This document shows, one piece after another, positions 4,669 to 21,598 of a stretch of DNA of 63,380 nt (the stretch's first letter is position 1; every line of letters starts with the position of its first letter). A program made the translations under genes and the position numbers. The DNA is from Bacteroidales bacterium UBA1182. GTDB lineage: Bacteria > Bacteroidota > Bacteroidia > Bacteroidales > Bacteroidaceae. The notes under the pieces were generated by a model. The model made no database searches and was not told the DNA's origin. It saw only the letters and a program-made list of their open reading frames with translations. The stretch covers positions 1 to 63,380 of the forward strand of contig DBYQ01000058.1 in assembly GCA_002310015.1 (NCBI GenBank). The letters run 5' to 3'.

Positions 4669-5244
4669 TCAGAATAATATCCGATATGCATCGGCTTTTT
4701 TCTCCAGGGAGAGCGGGTAGGCGCGTGAGGTGGAGGGCATGCGGTAGAAGTCTATGGGGCGGACGATGTTGTTTTGACTGATTGGAATGCTTATGTTGAT
4801 TTTGCTTCCGATGGGCGGGATGGGGCAGTTGAAGGTGCTGGCGATGACTTCTGTGGCTTTTTGGCCGGTGGTGACTATGGTGGTACAGAGGGGAATTTGT
4901 TGGAGCAGTGATGGGATATCGGTCGGCGTTATTACCTCTAGGAAGGCATCGGAGGCATTGTCTTTCAGACGGCGGATTTGGGTGGCGGTGTCGTAGAAAG
5001 CCAGTCCGTTTTGTGTGCAGAAGTCTTTTATGGCTTGCTCATTGAAGCGTTTTTCTTTGATGATGCAGAAGTGGTCTTTATCATTGAAATGTATCAGGCC
5101 GATGATGCGCCAGAAGTCGTTGATCCAGTTGGGGTAATAGAACGGCATGCTCCAGCGGTGGGGCTGGGGCGGGAAACTGCCCAGAAACAGCATCCTGGCG
5201 TTCTCAGGCAAAAATGGCTCAAACGGGTGCTGCTCTATATCCAT
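4669..5244 (-). CDS. uracil-DNA glycosylase superfamily protein (hypoxanthine/deoxyinosine-DNA glycosylase-like)
   Basis: N-terminal LFLGSFPPQP...YYPNWINDFW pattern resembles the UDG-like hypoxanthine-DNA glycosylase family. Confidence 0.5.
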   Translation of the reverse strand: MDIEQHPFEPFLPENARMLFLGSFPPQPHRWSMPFYYPNWINDFWRIIGLIHFNDKDHFCIIKEKRFNEQAIKDFCTQNGLAFYDTATQIRRLKDNASDAFLEVITPTDIPSLLQQIPLCTTIVTTGQKATEVIASTFNCPIPPIGSKINISIPISQNNIVRPIDFYRMPSTSRAYPLSLEKKADAYRILF

Positions 5245-5265
5245 CGCTCACAAAGATACAAAATG

Positions 5266-5337
5266 ATACAAAAGGGGTCAGACCCCAATTGTATCATTTT
5301 TGAAAATAGTACAATTGGGGTCTGACCCCTTTTGTAC
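5266..5337. repeat. REP doublet immediately upstream of the RAYT-like gene
   Basis: atacaaaaggggtcagaccccaattgtat (5266-5294) and gtacaattggggtctgaccccttttgtac (5309-5337), in inverted orientation. Confidence 0.9.
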
Positions 5338-5345
5338 TTTTTTTA

Positions 5346-5353
5346 TATCTTTG
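5346..5353 (+). promoter_or_regulatory. candidate -7 box TATCTTTG
   Basis: TAnnTTTG match 27 nt upstream of the ATG at 5380. Confidence 0.45.
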
Positions 5354-5379
5354 CGATATAATCAATTTGTTTGCAAACC

Positions 5380-6192
5380 ATGGCACGAAAATTAAGATTG
5401 GCCAGCGATTCTGGCATTTACCATGTGATTCTGCGCGGGGTGAACCGGCAGGACATTTTCGAGAACGAGAAAGATTTTCTCAAGTTTTTGAGTCTGATGG
5501 AGCGCTTGGCGTTTCCGGTGGATGAGACTGGGCATCGGGTTCCTCCTTTGCTGGTCATTTACGCTTATTGCCTGATGCCTAATCATGTGCATCTGCTGCT
5601 TAGGGAACAGCCCGGAATGTTGGTATCGGACGCAATAAAGTGGATATCAGGCACTTATGCGGGTTATTTTAATTTAAAGTACGAGCATGTTGGGCACCTT
5701 TTTCAGGACCGTTTCAGGAGTGAGGTGGTGAATGATTGGGAGTATTTTGTGACTTTGTTGCGGTACATTCATCAGAATCCGGTGGCTGGAGGGCTGGCGG
5801 ACAATGTGAGGTATTACAGGTGGAGCAGTTGGCGCGAGTATGATCCGGAGATGGTTTGTGATGTTCCGATATGTGCGACTCAGGCTGTTTTCACTAAGAT
5901 TTCGTTCGATGCGCTGGAGGAATTGGTTGATACGCCGCTGCCAAAAACGCAGAGAATTCTGGATTTTGATAGCGATTCCGGGAGGCGGGTGACCGATGAG
6001 AGGTTGCGTGAGTATATTAAGGCGGAGTTTGGGATTGCGGAAGTGCCTGCTATTCAGCATCTTGAGAAGGAGAAACGGAATGAGATTGTAAAAAAACTGC
6101 TGGAGTTTTGTGGAAATGTGATGCAGATTTCTCGCGTGACCGGTATCAGCCGCGGGGTTATCAGCAGGCTCAATAGAGCAATTGGGGTCTGA
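5380..6192 (+). CDS. IS200-like Y1 (HUH) transposase, REP-associated tyrosine transposase (RAYT)-like, with C-terminal HTH
   Basis: HUH motif in YCLMPNHVHLLL and catalytic Tyr context LLRYIHQNPV. C-terminal NVMQISRVTGISRGVISRL looks like an HTH. No TnpB gene or IS ends seen. The last codons and the stop lie inside a REP unit. Confidence 0.8.
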   Translation: MARKLRLASDSGIYHVILRGVNRQDIFENEKDFLKFLSLMERLAFPVDETGHRVPPLLVIYAYCLMPNHVHLLLREQPGMLVSDAIKWISGTYAGYFNLKYEHVGHLFQDRFRSEVVNDWEYFVTLLRYIHQNPVAGGLADNVRYYRWSSWREYDPEMVCDVPICATQAVFTKISFDALEELVDTPLPKTQRILDFDSDSGRRVTDERLREYIKAEFGIAEVPAIQHLEKEKRNEIVKKLLEFCGNVMQISRVTGISRGVISRLNRAIGV

Positions 6193-6325
6193 CCCCTTTT
6201 GCATCATTTTTTGAAAAATAGAGCAATTGGGGTCTGACCCCAATTGCACGTTTTTTGTATATTTGCGTGATGAATTCGAGTAAAATAGTACAAAAGGGGT
6301 CTGACCCCAATTGCACCAATTGCAC
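6176..6325. repeat. three REP units downstream of the RAYT-like gene
   Basis: gagcaattggggtctgaccccttttgc (6176-6202), gagcaattggggtctgaccccaattgcac (6221-6248) and gtacaaaaggggtctgaccccaattgcac (6288-6316), followed by a duplicated caattgcac. Confidence 0.9.
6258..6265 (+). promoter_or_regulatory. candidate -7 box TATATTTG
   Basis: TAnnTTTG match between REP units, upstream of manA. Confidence 0.35.
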
Positions 6326-6332
6326 ATATCCG

Positions 6333-7355
6333 ATGCTGTTTGAGCCGAACCTGCACACGGTGGTGTGGGGCGGGGAGCGGTTGTGCCGATGGAAGGGGCT
6401 TCCGGAGCAGGACCATGTGGGCGAGAGCTGGGAGGTGAGCGCTGTAGAGAGTTCGCCTTCAGTTGTTGCTAATGGTTCATGGACAGGGAAAACACTTCCG
6501 GAGGTGGTGGCATCGGCCCCAGAGGAGATTCTGGGCAAGGCTGTGGCTAGGCGTTACGGCGGACGGATGCCTCTGCTGGTGAAGTTTATCGACGCACGGA
6601 ATGATCTGAGCATTCAGGTTCACCCCAATGATGAGATGGCTCTGCGCGAGCATAACAAGCTGGGTAAGAGCGAGATGTGGTATGTTTTGGATGCTGAGCC
6701 GGGGGCTTGTATTTATGCTGGTTTCAAGAAGAAGCTTGGGGCCGATGAGTACAAGCGGATGGTGGAGGATGGGACTATCACTGAGGCACTTGCGCGGCAT
6801 GAGGCGCATGCGGGTGATGTTTTTTACATTCCGGCGGGGCGTGTGCATGCCATTTGCTGTGGAATATTATTGGCCGAGATTCAGCAGTCATCGGACGTAA
6901 CTTATAGGATATTTGACTATAACAGGTTGGGGCTGGACGGCAAGCCGCGCGAACTCCATACTGCCTATGCTGCTCAGGCACTTAACTACAAGGTGGAGCG
7001 GAAATACAGGACTGATTATGCGGTGCGGAATGACCGGGCGAACCTGATTATGGAGTCTAAGTTCTTTAGCGCCCGCGTGACGGAGGTGGATCATGAGTTT
7101 CATCGGAATCTGCTTAAATACGACAGTTTTATCATTACGATGTGCCTCAAGGGCGATTGTGTGATTAAGGTGCGTGCTACTGGTGATGAGGTGATTTTGA
7201 AGGAGGGGTTCAGTTGCTTGATTCCGGCGGCGGTTGCGGACTATGATATCAGGCCTGTTGGGGGTTCCTGCAAGGTTTTGGATGCGTTTATTGATAATCA
7301 GCGGGGAGGTTTGATGAATAGGATTCATCGGCTTTTCCACAAGAACAAATATTGA
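6333..7355 (+). CDS. manA: mannose-6-phosphate isomerase, class I
   Basis: GESWEVS, PLLVKFIDARNDLSIQVHPND, GKSEMWYVL, AGRVHAI and SSDVTYRIFDYNR. The start is uncertain: the ATG at 6270 would read through a REP unit in frame. Confidence 0.85.
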   Translation: MLFEPNLHTVVWGGERLCRWKGLPEQDHVGESWEVSAVESSPSVVANGSWTGKTLPEVVASAPEEILGKAVARRYGGRMPLLVKFIDARNDLSIQVHPNDEMALREHNKLGKSEMWYVLDAEPGACIYAGFKKKLGADEYKRMVEDGTITEALARHEAHAGDVFYIPAGRVHAICCGILLAEIQQSSDVTYRIFDYNRLGLDGKPRELHTAYAAQALNYKVERKYRTDYAVRNDRANLIMESKFFSARVTEVDHEFHRNLLKYDSFIITMCLKGDCVIKVRATGDEVILKEGFSCLIPAAVADYDIRPVGGSCKVLDAFIDNQRGGLMNRIHRLFHKNKY

Positions 7356-7370
7356 AAATTAAGCAAAATG

Positions 7371-7445
7371 ATACCATTGGGGTCTGTCCCCTTTGGTATC
7401 ATTTTCAAAAAAAACAGTACAAAAGGGGTCTGACCCCAATTGTAT
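7371..7445. repeat. REP doublet
   Basis: ataccattggggtctgtcccctttggtat (7371-7398) and gtacaaaaggggtctgaccccaattgtat (7417-7445), inverted. Confidence 0.9.
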
Positions 7446-7466
7446 CATTTTTTAGAGAAAAGAGAT

Positions 7467-8516
7467 ATGGCAAATCATGTGGTAATTATGGCGGGGGGTA
7501 TCGGGAGTAGATTCTGGCCCCTGAGTACTCCGGAGTTTCCTAAGCAATTTATTGATATTCTGGGTTGTGGACGGTCGCTGATTCAGCTGACTGTGGACCG
7601 GTTCAAGGGTATTTGCCCATCGGAAAACTTTTGGGTGGTGACTAACAAGGATTACGTGGATATTGTTAAGCAGCAGATTCCTGGTATTCCTTTAAAGCAT
7701 ATTTTAGCTGAGCCAGCGGCGCGAAATACGGCTCCGTGCATTGCCTGGGCGTGCTGGAGCATTAAGGAGGAGGATCCTGATGCAAATGTTGTCGTTACTC
7801 CCAGCGATGCGGTTGTAATGAACCCTGAGGAGTTCAGGCGCGTGATATCGGGCGCATTGGAGTTTACATCGGGCCACGACTTTATCGTGACTATCGGAAT
7901 CAAACCGAATAGGCCGGAAACTGGGTATGGTTATGTAAAAACGGTACAAAAGGGGTCTGACCCCAATTGTATCATTTTGGTGGAGGAGTTTAAGGAGAAG
8001 CCGGATCTGGAGACGGCTAAGAGGTATTTGGCGGATGGAAATTACCTTTGGAATGCGGGGATTTTTGTGTGGAATGTGAAGACGATTACCGATTCTATCA
8101 GGGCTTATAAGCCGATTTTGGCGGGGCAGATGGATAAAATGATACAAAAGGGGTCTGACCCCAATTGTACTGTTTTGGAGATTTTCCCGACTTGTGAGAA
8201 GATTTCTATTGACTATGCGGTGATGGAGCCGGCTGCTGCTGAGGGGAAGGTTTATACTTTTCCGGCGGATTTTGGGTGGAGCGATCTGGGGAACTGGCAG
8301 TCGCTGCATGAAAAGTTGCAGAAGGATGCGGATAATAATGCATCGGTGGGTAATGTACATTTCTATGAATCAAGCAATTGCGTGGTTCATGTTGAGGACG
8401 CCAAGAAGGTTGTGATTCAGGGATTGGACGGGTATATTGTATCGGAAAAGGGGGGACAAATTCTGATTTGCAAGCGTAGCGAGGAGCAGCGCATTAAAGA
8501 GTTTGGAGCAAAATGA
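7467..8516 (+). CDS. manC: mannose-1-phosphate guanylyltransferase
   Basis: VIMAGGIGSRFWPLS, ETGYGYV, FKEKPDLETAKRYL and SIDYAVMEP. The ORF contains two REP units in frame. The TGA stop lies in a REP flank. Confidence 0.85.
   Translation: MANHVVIMAGGIGSRFWPLSTPEFPKQFIDILGCGRSLIQLTVDRFKGICPSENFWVVTNKDYVDIVKQQIPGIPLKHILAEPAARNTAPCIAWACWSIKEEDPDANVVVTPSDAVVMNPEEFRRVISGALEFTSGHDFIVTIGIKPNRPETGYGYVKTVQKGSDPNCIILVEEFKEKPDLETAKRYLADGNYLWNAGIFVWNVKTITDSIRAYKPILAGQMDKMIQKGSDPNCTVLEIFPTCEKISIDYAVMEPAAAEGKVYTFPADFGWSDLGNWQSLHEKLQKDADNNASVGNVHFYESSNCVVHVEDAKKVVIQGLDGYIVSEKGGQILICKRSEEQRIKEFGAK
7944..7972. repeat. REP unit inside manC coding sequence
   Basis: gtacaaaaggggtctgaccccaattgtat is identical (29/29) to the intergenic copy at 7417-7445. 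It is translated as VQKGSDPNCI. Confidence 0.9.
8142..8170. repeat. REP unit inside manC coding sequence
   Basis: atacaaaaggggtctgaccccaattgtac with the aaaatg/tgtttt flanks seen at intergenic copies. It is translated as IQKGSDPNCT. Confidence 0.9.
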
Positions 8517-8690
8517 TGCAATTGGGGTCTGACCCCTTTTGCACTTGTCATTTTCAAAAAAAACAGTACAAAAGGGGTCTGACCCCAATTGTATCATTTT
8601 CAAAAAAAAACAGTGCAAAAGGGGTCAGACCCCAATTGCACCAATGGCACATGCAAAAAGAGTACCAAAGGGGTCTGACCCCAATGGTAC
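8517..8690. repeat. cluster of four REP units
   Basis: Units at 8517-8544 (inverted form) and at 8566-8594, 8613-8641 and 8662-8690 (direct form), including GTGC and ACCA variants. Confidence 0.9.
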
Positions 8691-8715
8691 TTTTTTAATT
8701 TTAAATAATTATGAT

Positions 8716-8723
8716 TATCTTTG
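8716..8723 (+). promoter_or_regulatory. candidate -7 box TATCTTTG
   Basis: TAnnTTTG match 42 nt upstream of the ATG at 8765. Confidence 0.45.
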
Positions 8724-8764
8724 CGGTCTGAATGTGAAATAATATTTTAAAATAAGGATAATAA

Positions 8765-11461
8765 ATGAAGAAAATTCTGGCTTGTATTGCATTCTTGCTG
8801 CCGCTGGTGGTTTACTCACAGAGTGCATCGATGATTTCAATGGCTCGCAATGAGCTGCAGAAACGTGGACTTGAAGAGACTGAGGTACGCGCGCGTCTGC
8901 TTGAAAACGGTATTGACGTGGATAATATTCCGCCGACTGAGTATCAGAACTATCAGGGTAGAGTTACGGCTATTATTAACCAGATGCAGGCCGAGAAGGC
9001 TCAGGCTTCATCTAATGCTACTCCTGCGGCCCCGGCCGGTGAGAGTGCCATTGCTGCAGCTGCAAGCGAGGCTCTTACTCCGGAGGATTTCCCGCAGACG
9101 ACTCAAGGTGAGGCTGCCGCAGAGGAGGCTCTTGAGGAGGCTCTCAAAGAGAATCATGTATCACCAACGGCTGGTGATGACATTTACGGCCACTCACTGT
9201 TTACAGGCAAGTCACTGGATGTGTATCGCACTACAGACGGTGCCCAGGCTCCTGAAACCTACGTTATGGGTGAGGGCGATGAGGTGCATATCTCAATATT
9301 CGGTTCGTCACAGACTGAGATTCATCAGCGTATTGGTGCCGATGGTTCAATACAACCTGCTAACAGCTCCAAGATATTCCTTAAGGGTATGACCCTGGAG
9401 CAGGCCCGTCAGGCTATCAGAAGTAAGCTGGCTTCATCTTACTCATTCCGTCCGGACCAGATTGCGGTTACCATTACTACGGCACGTACCGTGATGGTGA
9501 ACATATACGGTGAGGTAGGTGTTCAGGGCGGTTTTACACTCTCAGCACTTAACTCTGCATTCAATGCCCTGGCTGCAGCCGGCGGTCCTACAAGAATAGG
9601 TTCCGTACGTAACGTTCAGTTGAGCCGCGGTGGCAAGACAAGCCGTCTGGACCTGTACAGGTATATGACCAAGCCCGATCCCAATGCACAGTATGACCTG
9701 CAGAACGGTGATGTGCTGTTTGTGCCGGTGGCTGACAACATTGTAACTATTGAGGGTGCAGTAAACCGCCCCATGCGTTATGAGATGGTGGCTGGTGAGA
9801 CTGTAAAGGACCTGATACGCTATGCCGGTGGCGTGACATACAACGTTTATCCTGATTACCTGCAGATAGAGCGCCAGGAGGGCGGTGAGATAAAGATCCT
9901 GGAGTATGAGCTGGATAATGTGCTTTCAGGATCACAGAGGATAGAGCTCAAGAACGGTGATGTGGTAAGGGTACGCACATCGAACAAACCGCTTGAGAAC
10001 TACGTATCAATTAAGGGTGATGTGTTCTACGGAGGCCGATATGCGATTGAGAATAACGGTACCCTGCAGACTCTTATTGAGAAGGCTCAGCCCCGTTACA
10101 CAGCTATGACCGATTTTGTGTTTGTAGAGCGTACACGTCCCGACGAGACTGTTGAGGTGCTCACCATACCGTTCCCCGGCGTAAACGGCAATCCGGATTT
10201 TGAACTGCAGCCAAGAGATGCAGTGCTTGTTAAGGAGCAGTCAACATACCGTGACCTGGCAACAATCTCGGTAAGCGGTCAGGTGCGTGAACCTTTCTCA
10301 CGTCAGTTTGGTGTGAATGACAGGATGACAGTGGAGCAGGCTATAGGTTATGCAGGCGGTCTTAAGCCCAGTGTATTCCCTGTAGCTTACATATTCCGCC
10401 GTGACCTGACCAATCCCTCAAAACAGGAGTACCTGCGTATATTGCTGGATAGGGATGGCGATACCCTGCTGCAGCCCGGTGACCAGTTGAAAATATATGA
10501 CAACACCACTTATACAAACGTAGGTGAAGTCCGCGTGAGCGGTGCCGTAAAAAACCCGTTTGGAGTAGAGTTTGACAAGTCACTGACAGTGCATGACATG
10601 CTTGAGATGGCAGGCGGATTAGAGGTAGGTGCAGCATACGACCGCGTTGAGGTGTTCCGTATCAACATCTCTACAAAGGATGAGGTTAAACTTGACCAGA
10701 TTACCCTGACTGTTGATGACCAGTACAATCTGGTGGGTAACTCAGAATTCCAGTTGCAGCCGTATGACCATATAGTTGTACGCCGTACTCCTAACTTTAC
10801 CATGGGACGAACGGTTGAGGTTAACGGCCGCGTAAAATATCCGGGTGTATATGTACTGGAGGATAATAAAACACAGTTGTGGGAGATTATCCAGATGGCA
10901 GGCGGCCTGCTTGATGATGCAGCCCCGTATGCACGCCTGTTCCGTACTTATCGTAACCGCGGTAGTATAGGACTGGACCTTAGGGAGGTGAAGAGTAACA
11001 AGGGAAGACTCAAGTCTGACCCCATACTGATGGATGGTGACGTAATCAACATAACACGTATGGAGAACGTTGTTTCAATACGTGAGACCGGAACCAGAAT
11101 GGCTCAGTATGTACCTGAGGAGTATGCATCAAGCCAAAAGACAATCCTGTTCCAGGGTAAGCACAATGCCGCCTGGTATATACGCCATTATGCCGGCGGA
11201 TTCCAGAAGGCTGCCGATAAGAACAGCGTTACGGTTACGTACCCCAACAACCAGACAGAATCAACCAAACGCGGATTCCTTTGGATACGCCGTTATCCTA
11301 AAGTTGAATCAGGCGGTATGATTACACTGCGCATTGATGATGAGAAACGTGAGAAGATAGAGAAGCCTAAGGAGAAGATTGACTGGGGTGATGAACTGAG
11401 AACATCTCTCAGTACACTCACATCGGTTATATCATTGGTAATTCTTATTGACAAACTGTAG
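8765..11461 (+). CDS. large polysaccharide export protein with multiple SLBB-type repeats
   Basis: Signal peptide followed by a repeated G-D-x-(I/V/L)-x-V pattern (GDEVHISIFG, NGDVLFVPV, NGDVVRVR, PGDQLKIY, DGDVINI), as in Wza/SLBB export proteins. 898 aa. Confidence 0.7.
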   Translation: MKKILACIAFLLPLVVYSQSASMISMARNELQKRGLEETEVRARLLENGIDVDNIPPTEYQNYQGRVTAIINQMQAEKAQASSNATPAAPAGESAIAAAASEALTPEDFPQTTQGEAAAEEALEEALKENHVSPTAGDDIYGHSLFTGKSLDVYRTTDGAQAPETYVMGEGDEVHISIFGSSQTEIHQRIGADGSIQPANSSKIFLKGMTLEQARQAIRSKLASSYSFRPDQIAVTITTARTVMVNIYGEVGVQGGFTLSALNSAFNALAAAGGPTRIGSVRNVQLSRGGKTSRLDLYRYMTKPDPNAQYDLQNGDVLFVPVADNIVTIEGAVNRPMRYEMVAGETVKDLIRYAGGVTYNVYPDYLQIERQEGGEIKILEYELDNVLSGSQRIELKNGDVVRVRTSNKPLENYVSIKGDVFYGGRYAIENNGTLQTLIEKAQPRYTAMTDFVFVERTRPDETVEVLTIPFPGVNGNPDFELQPRDAVLVKEQSTYRDLATISVSGQVREPFSRQFGVNDRMTVEQAIGYAGGLKPSVFPVAYIFRRDLTNPSKQEYLRILLDRDGDTLLQPGDQLKIYDNTTYTNVGEVRVSGAVKNPFGVEFDKSLTVHDMLEMAGGLEVGAAYDRVEVFRINISTKDEVKLDQITLTVDDQYNLVGNSEFQLQPYDHIVVRRTPNFTMGRTVEVNGRVKYPGVYVLEDNKTQLWEIIQMAGGLLDDAAPYARLFRTYRNRGSIGLDLREVKSNKGRLKSDPILMDGDVINITRMENVVSIRETGTRMAQYVPEEYASSQKTILFQGKHNAAWYIRHYAGGFQKAADKNSVTVTYPNNQTESTKRGFLWIRRYPKVESGGMITLRIDDEKREKIEKPKEKIDWGDELRTSLSTLTSVISLVILIDKL

Positions 11462-19168: not shown

Positions 19169-21598
19169 ATGACTCTGAGGGAACTTAAGATAGGTGAGAG
19201 TGCTGTGATTGCCTCGGTTGGAGGTGAGGGGGCACTGAGGCAGCATTTTCTGGATATGGGGTTGCTGCCGGGCGTGGAGGTTAAGCTTTTGAAGTTTGCT
19301 CCGATGGGTGATCCGATGGAGCTTCTGGTTCGCGGATACACTCTTTCTCTCCGTCTTGAAGAAGCATCTCAAATTACAGTTGACGCACCGGATGGCAGCC
19401 AACAGCCCGAAAAAACAGTACCAAAGGGGTCTGACCCCAATGGTACTGTTTTTGAAAAAAAGGTACCATTGGGGTCAGACCCCTTTGGTACTGTTTTGGT
19501 CGATTTTGGGTATAATTTGTCTTTGCATGAGCATAACTCTCATCCGGGTTTGGGTGAGGCTGGTAAGTATCATGATGCTACTCATGAGAATGCGGTTCCT
19601 AAGGGTACGGTGTTGAGGTTTGCTTTGGCCGGTCAGCAGAATTGCGGCAAGACTACCTTGTTTAATCAGCTTACGGGTTCTAATCAGCATGTGGGTAATT
19701 TCCCGGGTGTGACTGTAGATAGAAAGGATGGGCAGATTAAGGGGCATCCGGATACTCTTGTCACAGACTTACCTGGTATATATTCTTTATCGCCTTACAC
19801 GCAGGAGGAGACGGTTTCACGCCAGTTCATTATTGAGCAGAAGCCTAACTGCATTATCAATATCGTCGATGCTACAAACATTGAACGCAACCTGTATCTG
19901 ACGGTTCAGCTCATGGAGCTGGGTGTGCCTATGGTGCTGGCTCTCAATATGATGGACGAGCTGACGGGTAATGGCGGATCGGTCCGCGTGAATGAGATGG
20001 AGCGAATCCTGGGTATTCCGGTGGTTCCGATATCGGCCGCAAAGGGCGAGGGTATCAAGGAGCTTGTGGAGCACGCCATTCATGTGGCTGAGTATCAGGA
20101 GGTTCCGGCCAGGACCGATTTCTGCACAAAGGATGATCACGGGGGTGCTGTTCACCGTTGCCTGCACAGCATAATGCATCTGGTTGAGGACCACACCGAA
20201 AGGGCTGGCATTCCGGGCCGATTCGCAGCCGGCAAGCTTGCTGAGGGCGATGCTCAAGTGCTTGAACAGCTACAACTTACACAGAACGAGAAAGAAACGA
20301 TGGAACACATAATCCTGCAGATGGAGGAGGAGCGTGGGATGGACCGCGCGGCTGCCATTGCAGATATGCGTTTCTCGTTTATTGAGCGCCTTTGCTCGCA
20401 GACGGTTGTCAAGCCGCAGAAGAGCAAAGAGTATATAAGGAGTCGCCGCATTGACCGCGTTCTGACCGGCCGATGGACAGCAATTCCAATCTTCCTGATA
20501 GTGATGTGCCTGGTGATATGGCTCTCAATCGATGTGTTGGGTGCACCGCTGCAGGATTGGCTTGACCAGCTGATTCAGGGCCTGGCAGGCATCTGTGTGG
20601 CTGGTATGGAGAAGGCCGATATTTCACCTGCAATCATATCGCTTGTTGAGGATGGCATTTTTGGCGGCGTGGGAAGCGTGCTGAGCTTTGTGCCTATCAT
20701 CATAATCCTGTTCTTCTTCCTTAGTCTGATTGAGGACAGCGGATATATGGCACGTATCGCGTTTGTGACCGATAAGCTGCTGCGTAAACTGGGTCTGTCG
20801 GGTCGTTCTATCGTGCCGTTGCTCATCGGCTTTGGCTGTTCTGTTCCGGCGGTTATGGCCACTAGAACGTTGCCATCGGCCCGTGACAGAAAGATGACCA
20901 TTCTGCTCACTCCGTTTATGAGCTGCAGCGCCAAGATTCCTATTTACGGATTCTTTACCAATGCGTTTTTCCCGGGCAAGGGCGGTCTGATTCTGGCCGG
21001 CTTGTACCTGCTGTCGATATTTGTAGGCGTGATTGTGGCGCTGGTGACCAAACTTTTCCGCAAGAATTACGTGGCTGCGCCGTTTGTGATGGAGCTGCCC
21101 AATTACCGCATGCCGGGACTCAAGAATGTGAGCCATCTGCTTTGGGACAAGACGAAGGACTTTGTGCAGAGGGCGTTCACGGTGATATTCGTGGCGACGA
21201 TCGTGATTTGGCTGCTGCAGACGTTTGATTTCCGATTCAATATGGTGGAGAACGGCGAGGGTAGCATGATGGCCTGGGTTGCTGGCGTGCTGGAGCCGCT
21301 GTTCCGTCCGCTGGGCCTTGGCGATTGGCGCATTGTTACCTCTTTTGTAAGCGGTTTCCTGGCTAAGGAGAGCGTGGTTGCTACGATGGAGGTGCTTGGC
21401 GTGACCGAGTCGCTGACTGTTATTACCGCTGTTCCGATGCTCATATTTAGCCTGCTCTACACGCCTTGCGTTGCTGCAATCAGCAGCGTTCGCCGCGAAC
21501 TTGGTGACAGGTGGGCAATCTATGTCGTAATCTTCCAGTGCGTCATCGCCTGGGTTGTGGCTTGGTTTGGTTATTTAATAGCACAGGCAGTATTATGA
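19169..21598 (+). CDS. feoB: ferrous iron transporter, FeoA-FeoB fusion
   Basis: The N-terminal FeoA domain ends ...LRLEEASQITV. FeoB G-domain LAGQQNCGKTTLFNQLTG and NFPGVTVD, followed by the polytopic membrane part. A REP doublet sits in frame in the linker. Confidence 0.9.
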   Translation: MTLRELKIGESAVIASVGGEGALRQHFLDMGLLPGVEVKLLKFAPMGDPMELLVRGYTLSLRLEEASQITVDAPDGSQQPEKTVPKGSDPNGTVFEKKVPLGSDPFGTVLVDFGYNLSLHEHNSHPGLGEAGKYHDATHENAVPKGTVLRFALAGQQNCGKTTLFNQLTGSNQHVGNFPGVTVDRKDGQIKGHPDTLVTDLPGIYSLSPYTQEETVSRQFIIEQKPNCIINIVDATNIERNLYLTVQLMELGVPMVLALNMMDELTGNGGSVRVNEMERILGIPVVPISAAKGEGIKELVEHAIHVAEYQEVPARTDFCTKDDHGGAVHRCLHSIMHLVEDHTERAGIPGRFAAGKLAEGDAQVLEQLQLTQNEKETMEHIILQMEEERGMDRAAAIADMRFSFIERLCSQTVVKPQKSKEYIRSRRIDRVLTGRWTAIPIFLIVMCLVIWLSIDVLGAPLQDWLDQLIQGLAGICVAGMEKADISPAIISLVEDGIFGGVGSVLSFVPIIIILFFFLSLIEDSGYMARIAFVTDKLLRKLGLSGRSIVPLLIGFGCSVPAVMATRTLPSARDRKMTILLTPFMSCSAKIPIYGFFTNAFFPGKGGLILAGLYLLSIFVGVIVALVTKLFRKNYVAAPFVMELPNYRMPGLKNVSHLLWDKTKDFVQRAFTVIFVATIVIWLLQTFDFRFNMVENGEGSMMAWVAGVLEPLFRPLGLGDWRIVTSFVSGFLAKESVVATMEVLGVTESLTVITAVPMLIFSLLYTPCVAAISSVRRELGDRWAIYVVIFQCVIAWVVAWFGYLIAQAVL
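19418..19491. repeat. REP doublet inside the feoAB coding sequence
   Basis: gtaccaaaggggtctgaccccaatggtac (19418-19446) and gtaccattggggtcagacccctttggtac (19463-19491). Translated as VPKGSDPNGTVFEKKVPLGSDPFGTV. Confidence 0.9.

Follow-up and report, generated by a model that had tools for sequence, protein, structure and literature searches.

Palindromic units within the manC gene

We examined a stretch of 63,380 nt from Bacteroidales bacterium UBA1182 (GCA_002310015.1, contig DBYQ01000058.1, positions 1-63,380; hereafter the window) that carries manC, a mannose-1-phosphate guanylyltransferase gene whose reading frame contains two units of a short repeat of the repetitive extragenic palindromic (REP) type. 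The downstream unit, here called site 2 (letters AAAATGATACAAAAGGGGTCTGACCCCAATTGTACTGTTTT), is flanked in the protein by LAGQMD before it and by EIFPTCEKISIDYAVMEP after it. Site 1, which lies 66 codons upstream, encodes KTVQKGSDPNCIIL and is read in the same register, as VQKGSDPNCI. A preliminary description of this DNA had proposed a REP unit in frame at 8136-8176, with flanks that recur elsewhere, and another one in the same gene sharing its GSDPN frame; sequence, core matches and translation agree with this. A third unit lies at the 3' end of manC, where its left flank, AAAATGA, provides the last Lys codon and the TGA stop (8514-8516). This stop-by-REP arrangement is kept in 8 genomes, while REP-free relatives end in GAS or SAN followed by other stop codons.

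The host gene is identified by a match of its product to the Pfam family NTP_transferase (PF00483) at 4e-38, a phmmer match to the PDB entry 2x5s (T. maritima GDP-mannose pyrophosphorylase) at 5e-63 over residues 6-346, and a GGxGxR(F/L)WP-type motif, present as MAGGIGSRFWPLS; the predicted fold has 2x5s and then 2x65 as its best Foldseek matches. In the AlphaFold2 model (predicted local distance difference test score, pLDDT, 72.7), site 2 forms the loop joining helices 216-226 and 234-242, and site 1 is the turn of a beta-hairpin joining strands 155-159 and 170-177. Three REP units lie in or touch this gene of 1 kb, in the densest REP region of the window, as might be expected if manC were a decaying pseudogene or a dispensable paralog in which REPs gather freely. 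Yet the frame of 349 codons is unbroken, the N-terminus is the family-conserved MANHVVIMAGG, about 170 invariant columns are common to all 38 aligned relatives, and the ratio of nonsynonymous to synonymous divergence (dN/dS) is 0.04-0.10 at dS 0.2-1.2 (window compared with REP-bearing relatives, REP segments excluded). The low dN/dS and the preserved predicted fold rule out the pseudogene reading and leave decay in any form essentially refuted; because of these same two features, manC appears to be a working, functional host gene despite its insertions.

The REP unit is a 41-nt imperfect palindrome made up of an A-run flank, an outer stem, a bubble, an inner stem and a loop. When its 13-nt core, GGGGTCWGACCCC, was searched for with one mismatch allowed, 28 matches were found in the window where 0.11 would be expected from shuffled sequences, and 20 of the 28 sit at 0.5-8.7 kb, surrounding a probable gene for a REP-associated tyrosine transposase (RAYT). 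Intergenic copies, e.g. those at 1057, 5274, 19426 and 19471, again have the flanks aaaatgatac and gtactgtttt, and nine pairs of units are inverted with a spacing of 43-46 nt (517/561, 1057/1100, 2538/2582, 5274/5317, 6184/6229, 7379/7425, 19426/19471, 21740/21784 and 44896/44939). The outer stem has the consensus [AG]TAC[AC]A / T[TG]GTA[TC], the inner stem is GGGG/CCCC and the 5-nt loop is NCWGN, while the 2-nt bubble is AA or TT on each side, with every combination seen. The hairpin foot [AG]TAC / GTA[TC] is present in 93-98% of units. Depending on the stem column, pairing is Watson-Crick in 93-100% of 238 distinct units, and pair 11-31 shows clean compensation, with A-T in 168 units, C-G in 65 and a non-Watson-Crick combination in 5.

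At site 2 the hairpin has the outer stem TACAA/TTGTA, a 2-nt bubble and the inner stem GGGGT/ACCCC, with a folding energy of -7.1 kcal/mol for the DNA and of -12.1 kcal/mol for the RNA (z about -2.3). An Rfam scan by E-value of positions 5000-9000 returned only sub-threshold miRNA-precursor matches on REP pairs, far below the gathering scores; these were taken as generic matches to long hairpins, and a known RNA family for the pairs was rejected. On the sense strand, both manC units (cores 7952-7964 and 8150-8162) read CCCC and then AATT. The 3' bubble starts with AA in all displayed manC units of the window's clade, and with TT in about half of the 238 distinct units. A terminator role for the sense-strand units was also rejected, as the scan flagged the form of hairpin plus TTTT on the antisense strand only.

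The probable RAYT gene lies 1.3 kb upstream of manC. Its product matches Pfam Y1_Tnp at 1e-12 and has NHVH as its HUH motif and RYIHQNP as its Tyr motif; about 130 C-terminal residues past the Y1 domain have no Pfam match. The gene ends in a TGA that forms the centre of REP core 6184. The motifs NHVH and YIHQNP match those of Bacteroidetes subclass 2.6, the flanking structures of which have been called only 'atypical' (Quentin et al. 2018). Each of the 13 loci with REP-type manC inserts has a RAYT gene in synteny, upstream of manA-manC (56-94% identity), and none of the 52 loci without such inserts has one there, a pattern consistent with co-divergence of RAYT and REP. As judged from sequence, the gene and its flanking REPs have the organisation of a REP-RAYT system, and its product is presumably the enzyme that mobilises these REPs.

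The immediate neighbours of manC are manA (6255-7355), encoding a type I phosphomannose isomerase and probably starting at the ATG after REP 6296, and a gene for a Wza-like polysaccharide export protein with SLBB domains (8765-11461). The manA-manC-Wza-like region is a capsule or exopolysaccharide precursor locus.

Table 1. Coordinates of the host genes, the RAYT gene and the REP units discussed in the text (positions in the window).
Feature	Position	Strand	Remarks
Inverted REP pair (REPIN-like) directly upstream of RAYT gene	5260..5343	.	Core matches
Probable RAYT, 273 aa	5371..6192	+	Y1_Tnp domain, HUH and Tyr motifs
Three REP units directly downstream of RAYT, overlapping the gene end, upstream of manA	6170..6322	.	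Core matches
REP pair, manA-manC intergenic region	7365..7451	.	Core matches
manC, mannose-1-phosphate guanylyltransferase, 349 aa	7467..8516	+	Intact, purifying selection; open reading frame 7440/7467-8516
REP unit 'site 1', in frame in manC, codes K158-L171	7938..7978	+	Turn of predicted beta-hairpin
REP unit 'site 2', in frame in manC, codes K224-L237	8136..8176	+	Absent from REP-free orthologs
Third REP unit, at manC 3' end	8510..8550	.	First of four-unit array reaching 8696
REPIN (two inverted units) in frame, FeoA-FeoB linker of feoAB fusion gene (19169-21598)	19412..19497	+	GSDP register

Insertion history and reading register

ManC homologs are plentiful in uncultured rumen and gut Bacteroidales, with RUG10916 as the closest species representative (96% amino acid identity). 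In a DNA alignment, the REP units of the window and of the related loci L001-L009, L014 and L046 share the same junctions at each of the two sites. REP-free orthologs have an unrelated, shorter loop at site 2 (KMLATGRVDEIFP; KMLATG(R/Q)VDEIFP in relatives at 80-87% identity), and at site 1 they have KAMAADCEIKA, following the pattern KA(M/V)A..(E/D)IKA, with no similarity to REP. An ancestral origin of the segment, which the preliminary description had proposed to check by such an ortholog alignment, was therefore rejected, the loops of REP-free relatives at this level of identity being unrelated to REP at both sites.

Relative to the REP-free loops, the net gain is 15 nt (5 codons) at site 2 and 9 nt (3 codons) at site 1, and the REP units appear to have replaced ancestral loop codons rather than merely lengthening the loops. 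Cleaner insertions into a recognisable ancestral loop are found elsewhere, in P0047 (KAVP-NVKKGTVPNFTF-KDADMKIQA) and P0067, which makes later trimming the likely history. A flanking duplication was looked for at both manC junctions by comparison with REP-free orthologs, and none was found.

Among 198 relatives, 42 have REP-type inserts at both sites, 11 at site 1 only, 21 at site 2 only and 124 at neither. Since all four states of occupancy are present, the two sites were colonised independently, and more than once, which bears out the independence of the two insertions asserted in the preliminary description. The insertions themselves are old and are common to at least 11 genomes of species level, through which they have been handed down. 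Their age, the replacement of the loops and the concerted evolution with the genomic REP pool reported below were all absent from that description. In lineages without a RAYT, both loops are hypervariable, with NENENE runs, SNLSPLT tandem repeats and long acidic inserts, and these unrelated inserts indicate that both loops are generally tolerant of insertion and deletion.

The two loops occur in several further variants. The low-complexity or tandem inserts at sites 1 and 2 of the RAYT-free L021, L045, L049, L066 and L070 include SNLSPLTFNLSPLT, NENENENE and GSQLSNSTLTTDSKLSTLNSKL. Site 2 of P0028 is MTVQKGTVLEIFP, apparently a REP that has lost an inner stretch without a change of frame. In L012, L015, L017, L018, L010, L006 and L046 the manC sites hold REPs of other families or in other arrangements, for example the CCAAAGGGGACGGTTCTGTTTGGCCCC type, dimers of REPIN form and, in L006 and L046, a unit that has an additional loop of 21 nt. 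In L012 the register of the site 2 REPIN (KGDGS) differs from that of the site 1 REPIN (KGTV).

We defined the register of a unit as the codon position of its first core G and read the full 41 nt of all units on both strands. Register 2, the GSDPN frame, is free of stops in 96% (window) and 92% (all loci) of the unit-strands. Register 0 is stop-free in 57% and 69%, respectively, and is closed by a TGA at the core centre if the centre base is T; this is the TGA (GGG GTC TGA) that the preliminary description had correctly seen in one forward frame. Register 1 is stop-free in only 34% and 39%, as the common flanks AAAATGA and AAAATAG close it with the TGA or TAG at their positions 5-7. If stop-free insertions were placed at random, about 51% would fall in register 2, with an openness-weighted expectation in the window of about 51:30:18 for registers 2, 0 and 1, and two insertions would both fall in register 2 about one time in four. 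The stop filter invoked in that description, by which only frame-compatible insertions survive, is thus real and stronger than stated, since the flank also closes register 1, but the frame bias that it was said to imply is not needed.

A genome-wide survey of frame use had also been suggested, and we took a census over 385 related loci (2.8 Mb, 502 distinct units) with a codon-usage log-likelihood filter and Pfam checks. The coding filter was added because the unfiltered census of open reading frames consisted mostly of antisense manC frames (register 0, minus strand) and high-GC junk (L104, L121 and L180). It is a weak filter, with true manC flanks scoring 0.04-0.2 per codon, and it missed a gene for an M56 peptidase that was kept on the strength of Pfam and inspection of the sequence. 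Intragenic units were found only at 6-7 host-gene sites. Four independent host sites use register 2 (manC site 1, manC site 2, the feoAB linker and a cobB-like gene) and three use register 0 (a PARG-like gene, the M56 peptidase gene and manC site 2 of L012, which belongs to a different REP family); register 1 was used at no host site in this census of 385 loci and 502 distinct units. These counts agree with the openness-weighted expectation, and from a sample of this size nothing further can be read.

In feoAB of the window, FeoA (residues 1-72) is fused to FeoB, and the two units of the linker REPIN are read as VPKGSDPNGT and VPLGSDPFGT. The cobB-like gene (L259:4697, minus strand) encodes a protein like cobyrinate a,c-diamide synthase, with a REP unit in register 2 after GHEFHYS; an earlier stretch of the same protein, HKGDGSFCALLKENNCKSEDNLKGTKRTVPNVPF, resembles a degenerate REPIN of another family. 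The M56/BlaR1-like membrane peptidase gene (L125:3694-3835) has three REP units in register 0, apparently in a loop that joins N-terminal transmembrane helices; its Pfam match lies only downstream of the units and its start was chosen by eye.

Could the REP/RAYT machinery or the target site nevertheless favour the GSDPN register? Register 2 is that of every in-frame unit of the window, two in manC and two in feoAB, and of the unit of the cobB-like gene; by their G-x-x-P pattern, 136 of the 138 REP-type core peptides in manC relatives are in it too. However, an excess of register 2 is what the selection filter alone predicts, the manC relatives are not independent events (conversion and nested insertion keep an inherited frame), three host sites use register 0, and there is no known means by which a transposase could sense a reading frame. 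We therefore regard a bias of insertion as improbable, and because register 2 alone is nearly always open, such a bias is unneeded. The shared frame of the two manC units loses with it the special significance that it had been given.

Concerted evolution of the intragenic units

The units at sites 1 and 2 are on average 0.2 nt apart within a genome but 3.5-3.7 nt apart between genomes (permutation p < 5e-5). Both sites read ACAAAA-GGGGTCTGACCCC-AATTGT in the window (peptide QKGSDPNC), ACCAAA-GGGGTCTGTCCCC-AATGGT in L001 (PKGSVPNG), ACAAAA-GGGGACTGTCCCC-AATTGT in L002 and L004 (QKGTVPNC), and ACCAAT-GGGGCCTGACCCC-AATGGT in L008, L009 and L014 (PMGPDPNG). In 9 of 10 genomes the intragenic variant is also the dominant variant of the neighbouring intergenic units. 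Synonymous variation is correspondingly reduced, being present in 2 of 9 REP codon columns and in 188 of 242 columns of the remainder of manC (Fisher p = 9e-4). The outer flanks mostly remain site-specific, so the homogenised tract comprises roughly the inner 25-31 nt. At the level of the protein, the change of stem between ACAA/TTGT and ACCA/TGGT shows as Q..C against P..G, a covariation that is imposed by the DNA hairpin.

The same pattern is seen in other hosts. The feoAB orthologs in L173, L213, L219 and L275 each bear the REP variant of their own genome. In the PARG-like gene of four other genomes (L166:3521, L332:1408, L365:5833 and L378:4241), a single unit, in frame in register 0 and inside the catalytic-domain match, is likewise of the genome-specific variant (TKGDSPLLY or TKGVRPQLY).

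Identity of intragenic and intergenic units might also arise if assembly or binning had collapsed the repeats. The comparison genomes are all metagenome-assembled, and one mismatch described below could be due to chimerism, but units of 41 nt are far below read length and below the k=141 that the contig titles give for the assemblies, each site keeps its own flanks, and the pattern is repeated in more than 10 genomes assembled independently in different studies. An artefact of this kind is therefore very improbable. As to mechanism, short-tract gene conversion or template switching between REP copies would be the simplest route to homogenisation, with RAYT-mediated replacement at a retained target as an alternative.

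A different explanation of the conservation is that the hairpins or their peptides are kept for a role, such as mRNA stabilisation or processing, translational pausing, a useful ManC loop, or binding of the RAYT or another protein that would couple capsule and mannose metabolism to the element. In keeping with such a role, the units have lasted over dS of about 1 with compensatory changes that preserve the hairpin and with lowered synonymous divergence, both sense-strand units avoid the terminator-like form of hairpin plus TTTT, and the manA-manC operon has kept the RAYT as its neighbour. Homogenisation by gene conversion, however, accounts for the conservation with no need of a function. The enzymes of REP-free relatives look functional and have unrelated loops, the NENENE and SNLSPLT inserts of RAYT-free lineages speak for tolerance rather than need, and the unit is partly deleted in some relatives (P0028). 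We consider exaptation unlikely, and the loop peptide would then have no function of its own.

The explanation that we hold to be very probable is that a REP copy colonised a tolerant ManC loop in an open register, was kept, and has since been homogenised with the genomic pool. The 41-nt unit, presumably mobilised by the Y1 RAYT-type transposase encoded upstream, would have entered an indel-tolerant surface loop of ManC and displaced the ancestral loop codons. It may have survived because it landed in the sole register that is open across the whole unit, giving a peptide, QKGSDPNC, that is hydrophilic and turn-forming. A separate colonisation would have placed the second unit in the beta-hairpin turn, with the third unit coming to abut the stop codon. 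The enzyme remained functional, and the insertions have passed through at least 11 species-level lineages. Rather than being fixed remnants, the intragenic copies have had their inner ~25 nt homogenised repeatedly to the dominant REP variant of each genome, so that the DNA hairpin is kept and the residues Q..C and P..G covary.

Several points weigh against this explanation. Mobilisation, binding by the RAYT and conversion are each deduced from sequence and not from direct observation, and all of the relatives compared are metagenome-assembled genomes. The top NCBIfam match of the RAYT candidate, REP_Tyr_transpos (NF047646), scores 53 bits against a curated cut-off of 80. The co-occurrence of RAYT and REP across loci is phylogenetically non-independent, so that the association amounts effectively to one or a few events, and the register census comprises only 6-7 independent host sites. 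The small net gain at both manC sites means that simple cut-and-paste does not fit the present state, and later deletions or replacement have to be assumed. Finally, L008 (RUG450) departs from the rule, as its intragenic units (3477 and 3675) are of the L009 type but its neighbouring intergenic units (202-2951 and 4181) are of the L002 or window types. A clean recombination breakpoint was sought for L008 and rejected, since sliding identity shows its manC to be a mosaic relative to L002 and L009 with no clear donor; recombination between lineages, lagging homogenisation or chimerism of the bin are possible causes of the mismatch.

Relation to known repeats and significance

The elements described here have the structural features of REP/REPIN-RAYT systems, namely a short, high-copy, imperfect stem-loop palindrome that is dispersed, mostly intergenic and often arranged in inverted pairs about 44 nt apart, and a single-copy cognate gene for a Y1 HUH transposase that is flanked by the repeats, with RAYT and REP variants diverging together. 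Intragenic REPs of the GTAG/CGTC superfamilies that lie in frame, sometimes two per gene (uvrA and uvrB), have been catalogued (Di Nocera et al. 2013, PMC3733652). The hairpin foot here differs from the tags of those superfamilies in being RTAC, which places the unit outside both of them. The host also differs from those of the catalogued REP systems, being an uncultured rumen lineage of Bacteroidales.

A second parallel is with the Rickettsia palindromic elements (RPEs) reportedly described by Ogata et al. in 2000. To our knowledge, no transposase associated with RPEs has been identified. Like the manC units, RPEs are palindromic selfish repeats that lie in frame in many functional genes, where they are tolerated owing to surface-compatible positions and add a conserved peptide (PMC10969869, PMC3733652). 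They differ in size and host, RPEs being ~100-150 bp long, encoding 30-50 amino acids and occurring in obligate intracellular Alphaproteobacteria, whereas the present REP is 41 nt long, encodes 13-14 amino acids, has an adjacent RAYT and replaces a loop with a net gain of only 3 or 5 codons. Miniature inverted-repeat transposable elements such as ERIC, BOX and Nezha are likewise small non-autonomous repeats that can sit in open reading frames and be translated (reviewed in PMC10969869). In contrast to them, the units in manC have neither terminal inverted repeats of the insertion-sequence type nor a target-site duplication at their junctions, and the associated enzyme is of the Y1/HUH rather than the DDE kind. 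The manC units are accordingly to be classed neither with RPEs, by their size, nor with these miniature elements, by their ends.

That palindromic repeats can stand in frame in functional genes is thus already established; what is new here is the manC case in Bacteroidales, the concerted evolution of its units and the explanation of their frame. A limited search of the literature yielded no account of intragenic REP copies co-evolving with the genomic pool. We suggest tentatively, as a possibility to which we give well below even weight, that the intragenic copies stay active members of the REP population and continually undergo exchange or conversion with the genomic pool, perhaps through the RAYT next to them, which would then act preferentially in cis. 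If so, a mobile element would 'own' two loops of a conserved enzyme, and the covariation within them (Q..C with P..G, and D with V) would be set by the co-evolution of DNA hairpin and transposase and not by protein function. Such sites would then provide a natural clock for rates of REP replacement, because the flanking codons give exact orthology.

Gene-anchored copies are in any case exact orthologous markers of REP turnover and gene conversion, which are hard to follow with intergenic copies. The recurrence of the 'GSDPN' peptide has a mechanical cause, the existence of a single register that is reliably free of stops, and the peptides QKGSDPNC, PKGSVPNG and QKGTVPNC that will be met in many proteins of rumen Bacteroidales should be annotated as encoded by the repeat and not as functional motifs. 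The system adds a Bacteroidales REP/RAYT pair from uncultured rumen lineages to the known examples, and its in-frame repeats in working genes show selfish DNA writing protein sequence.

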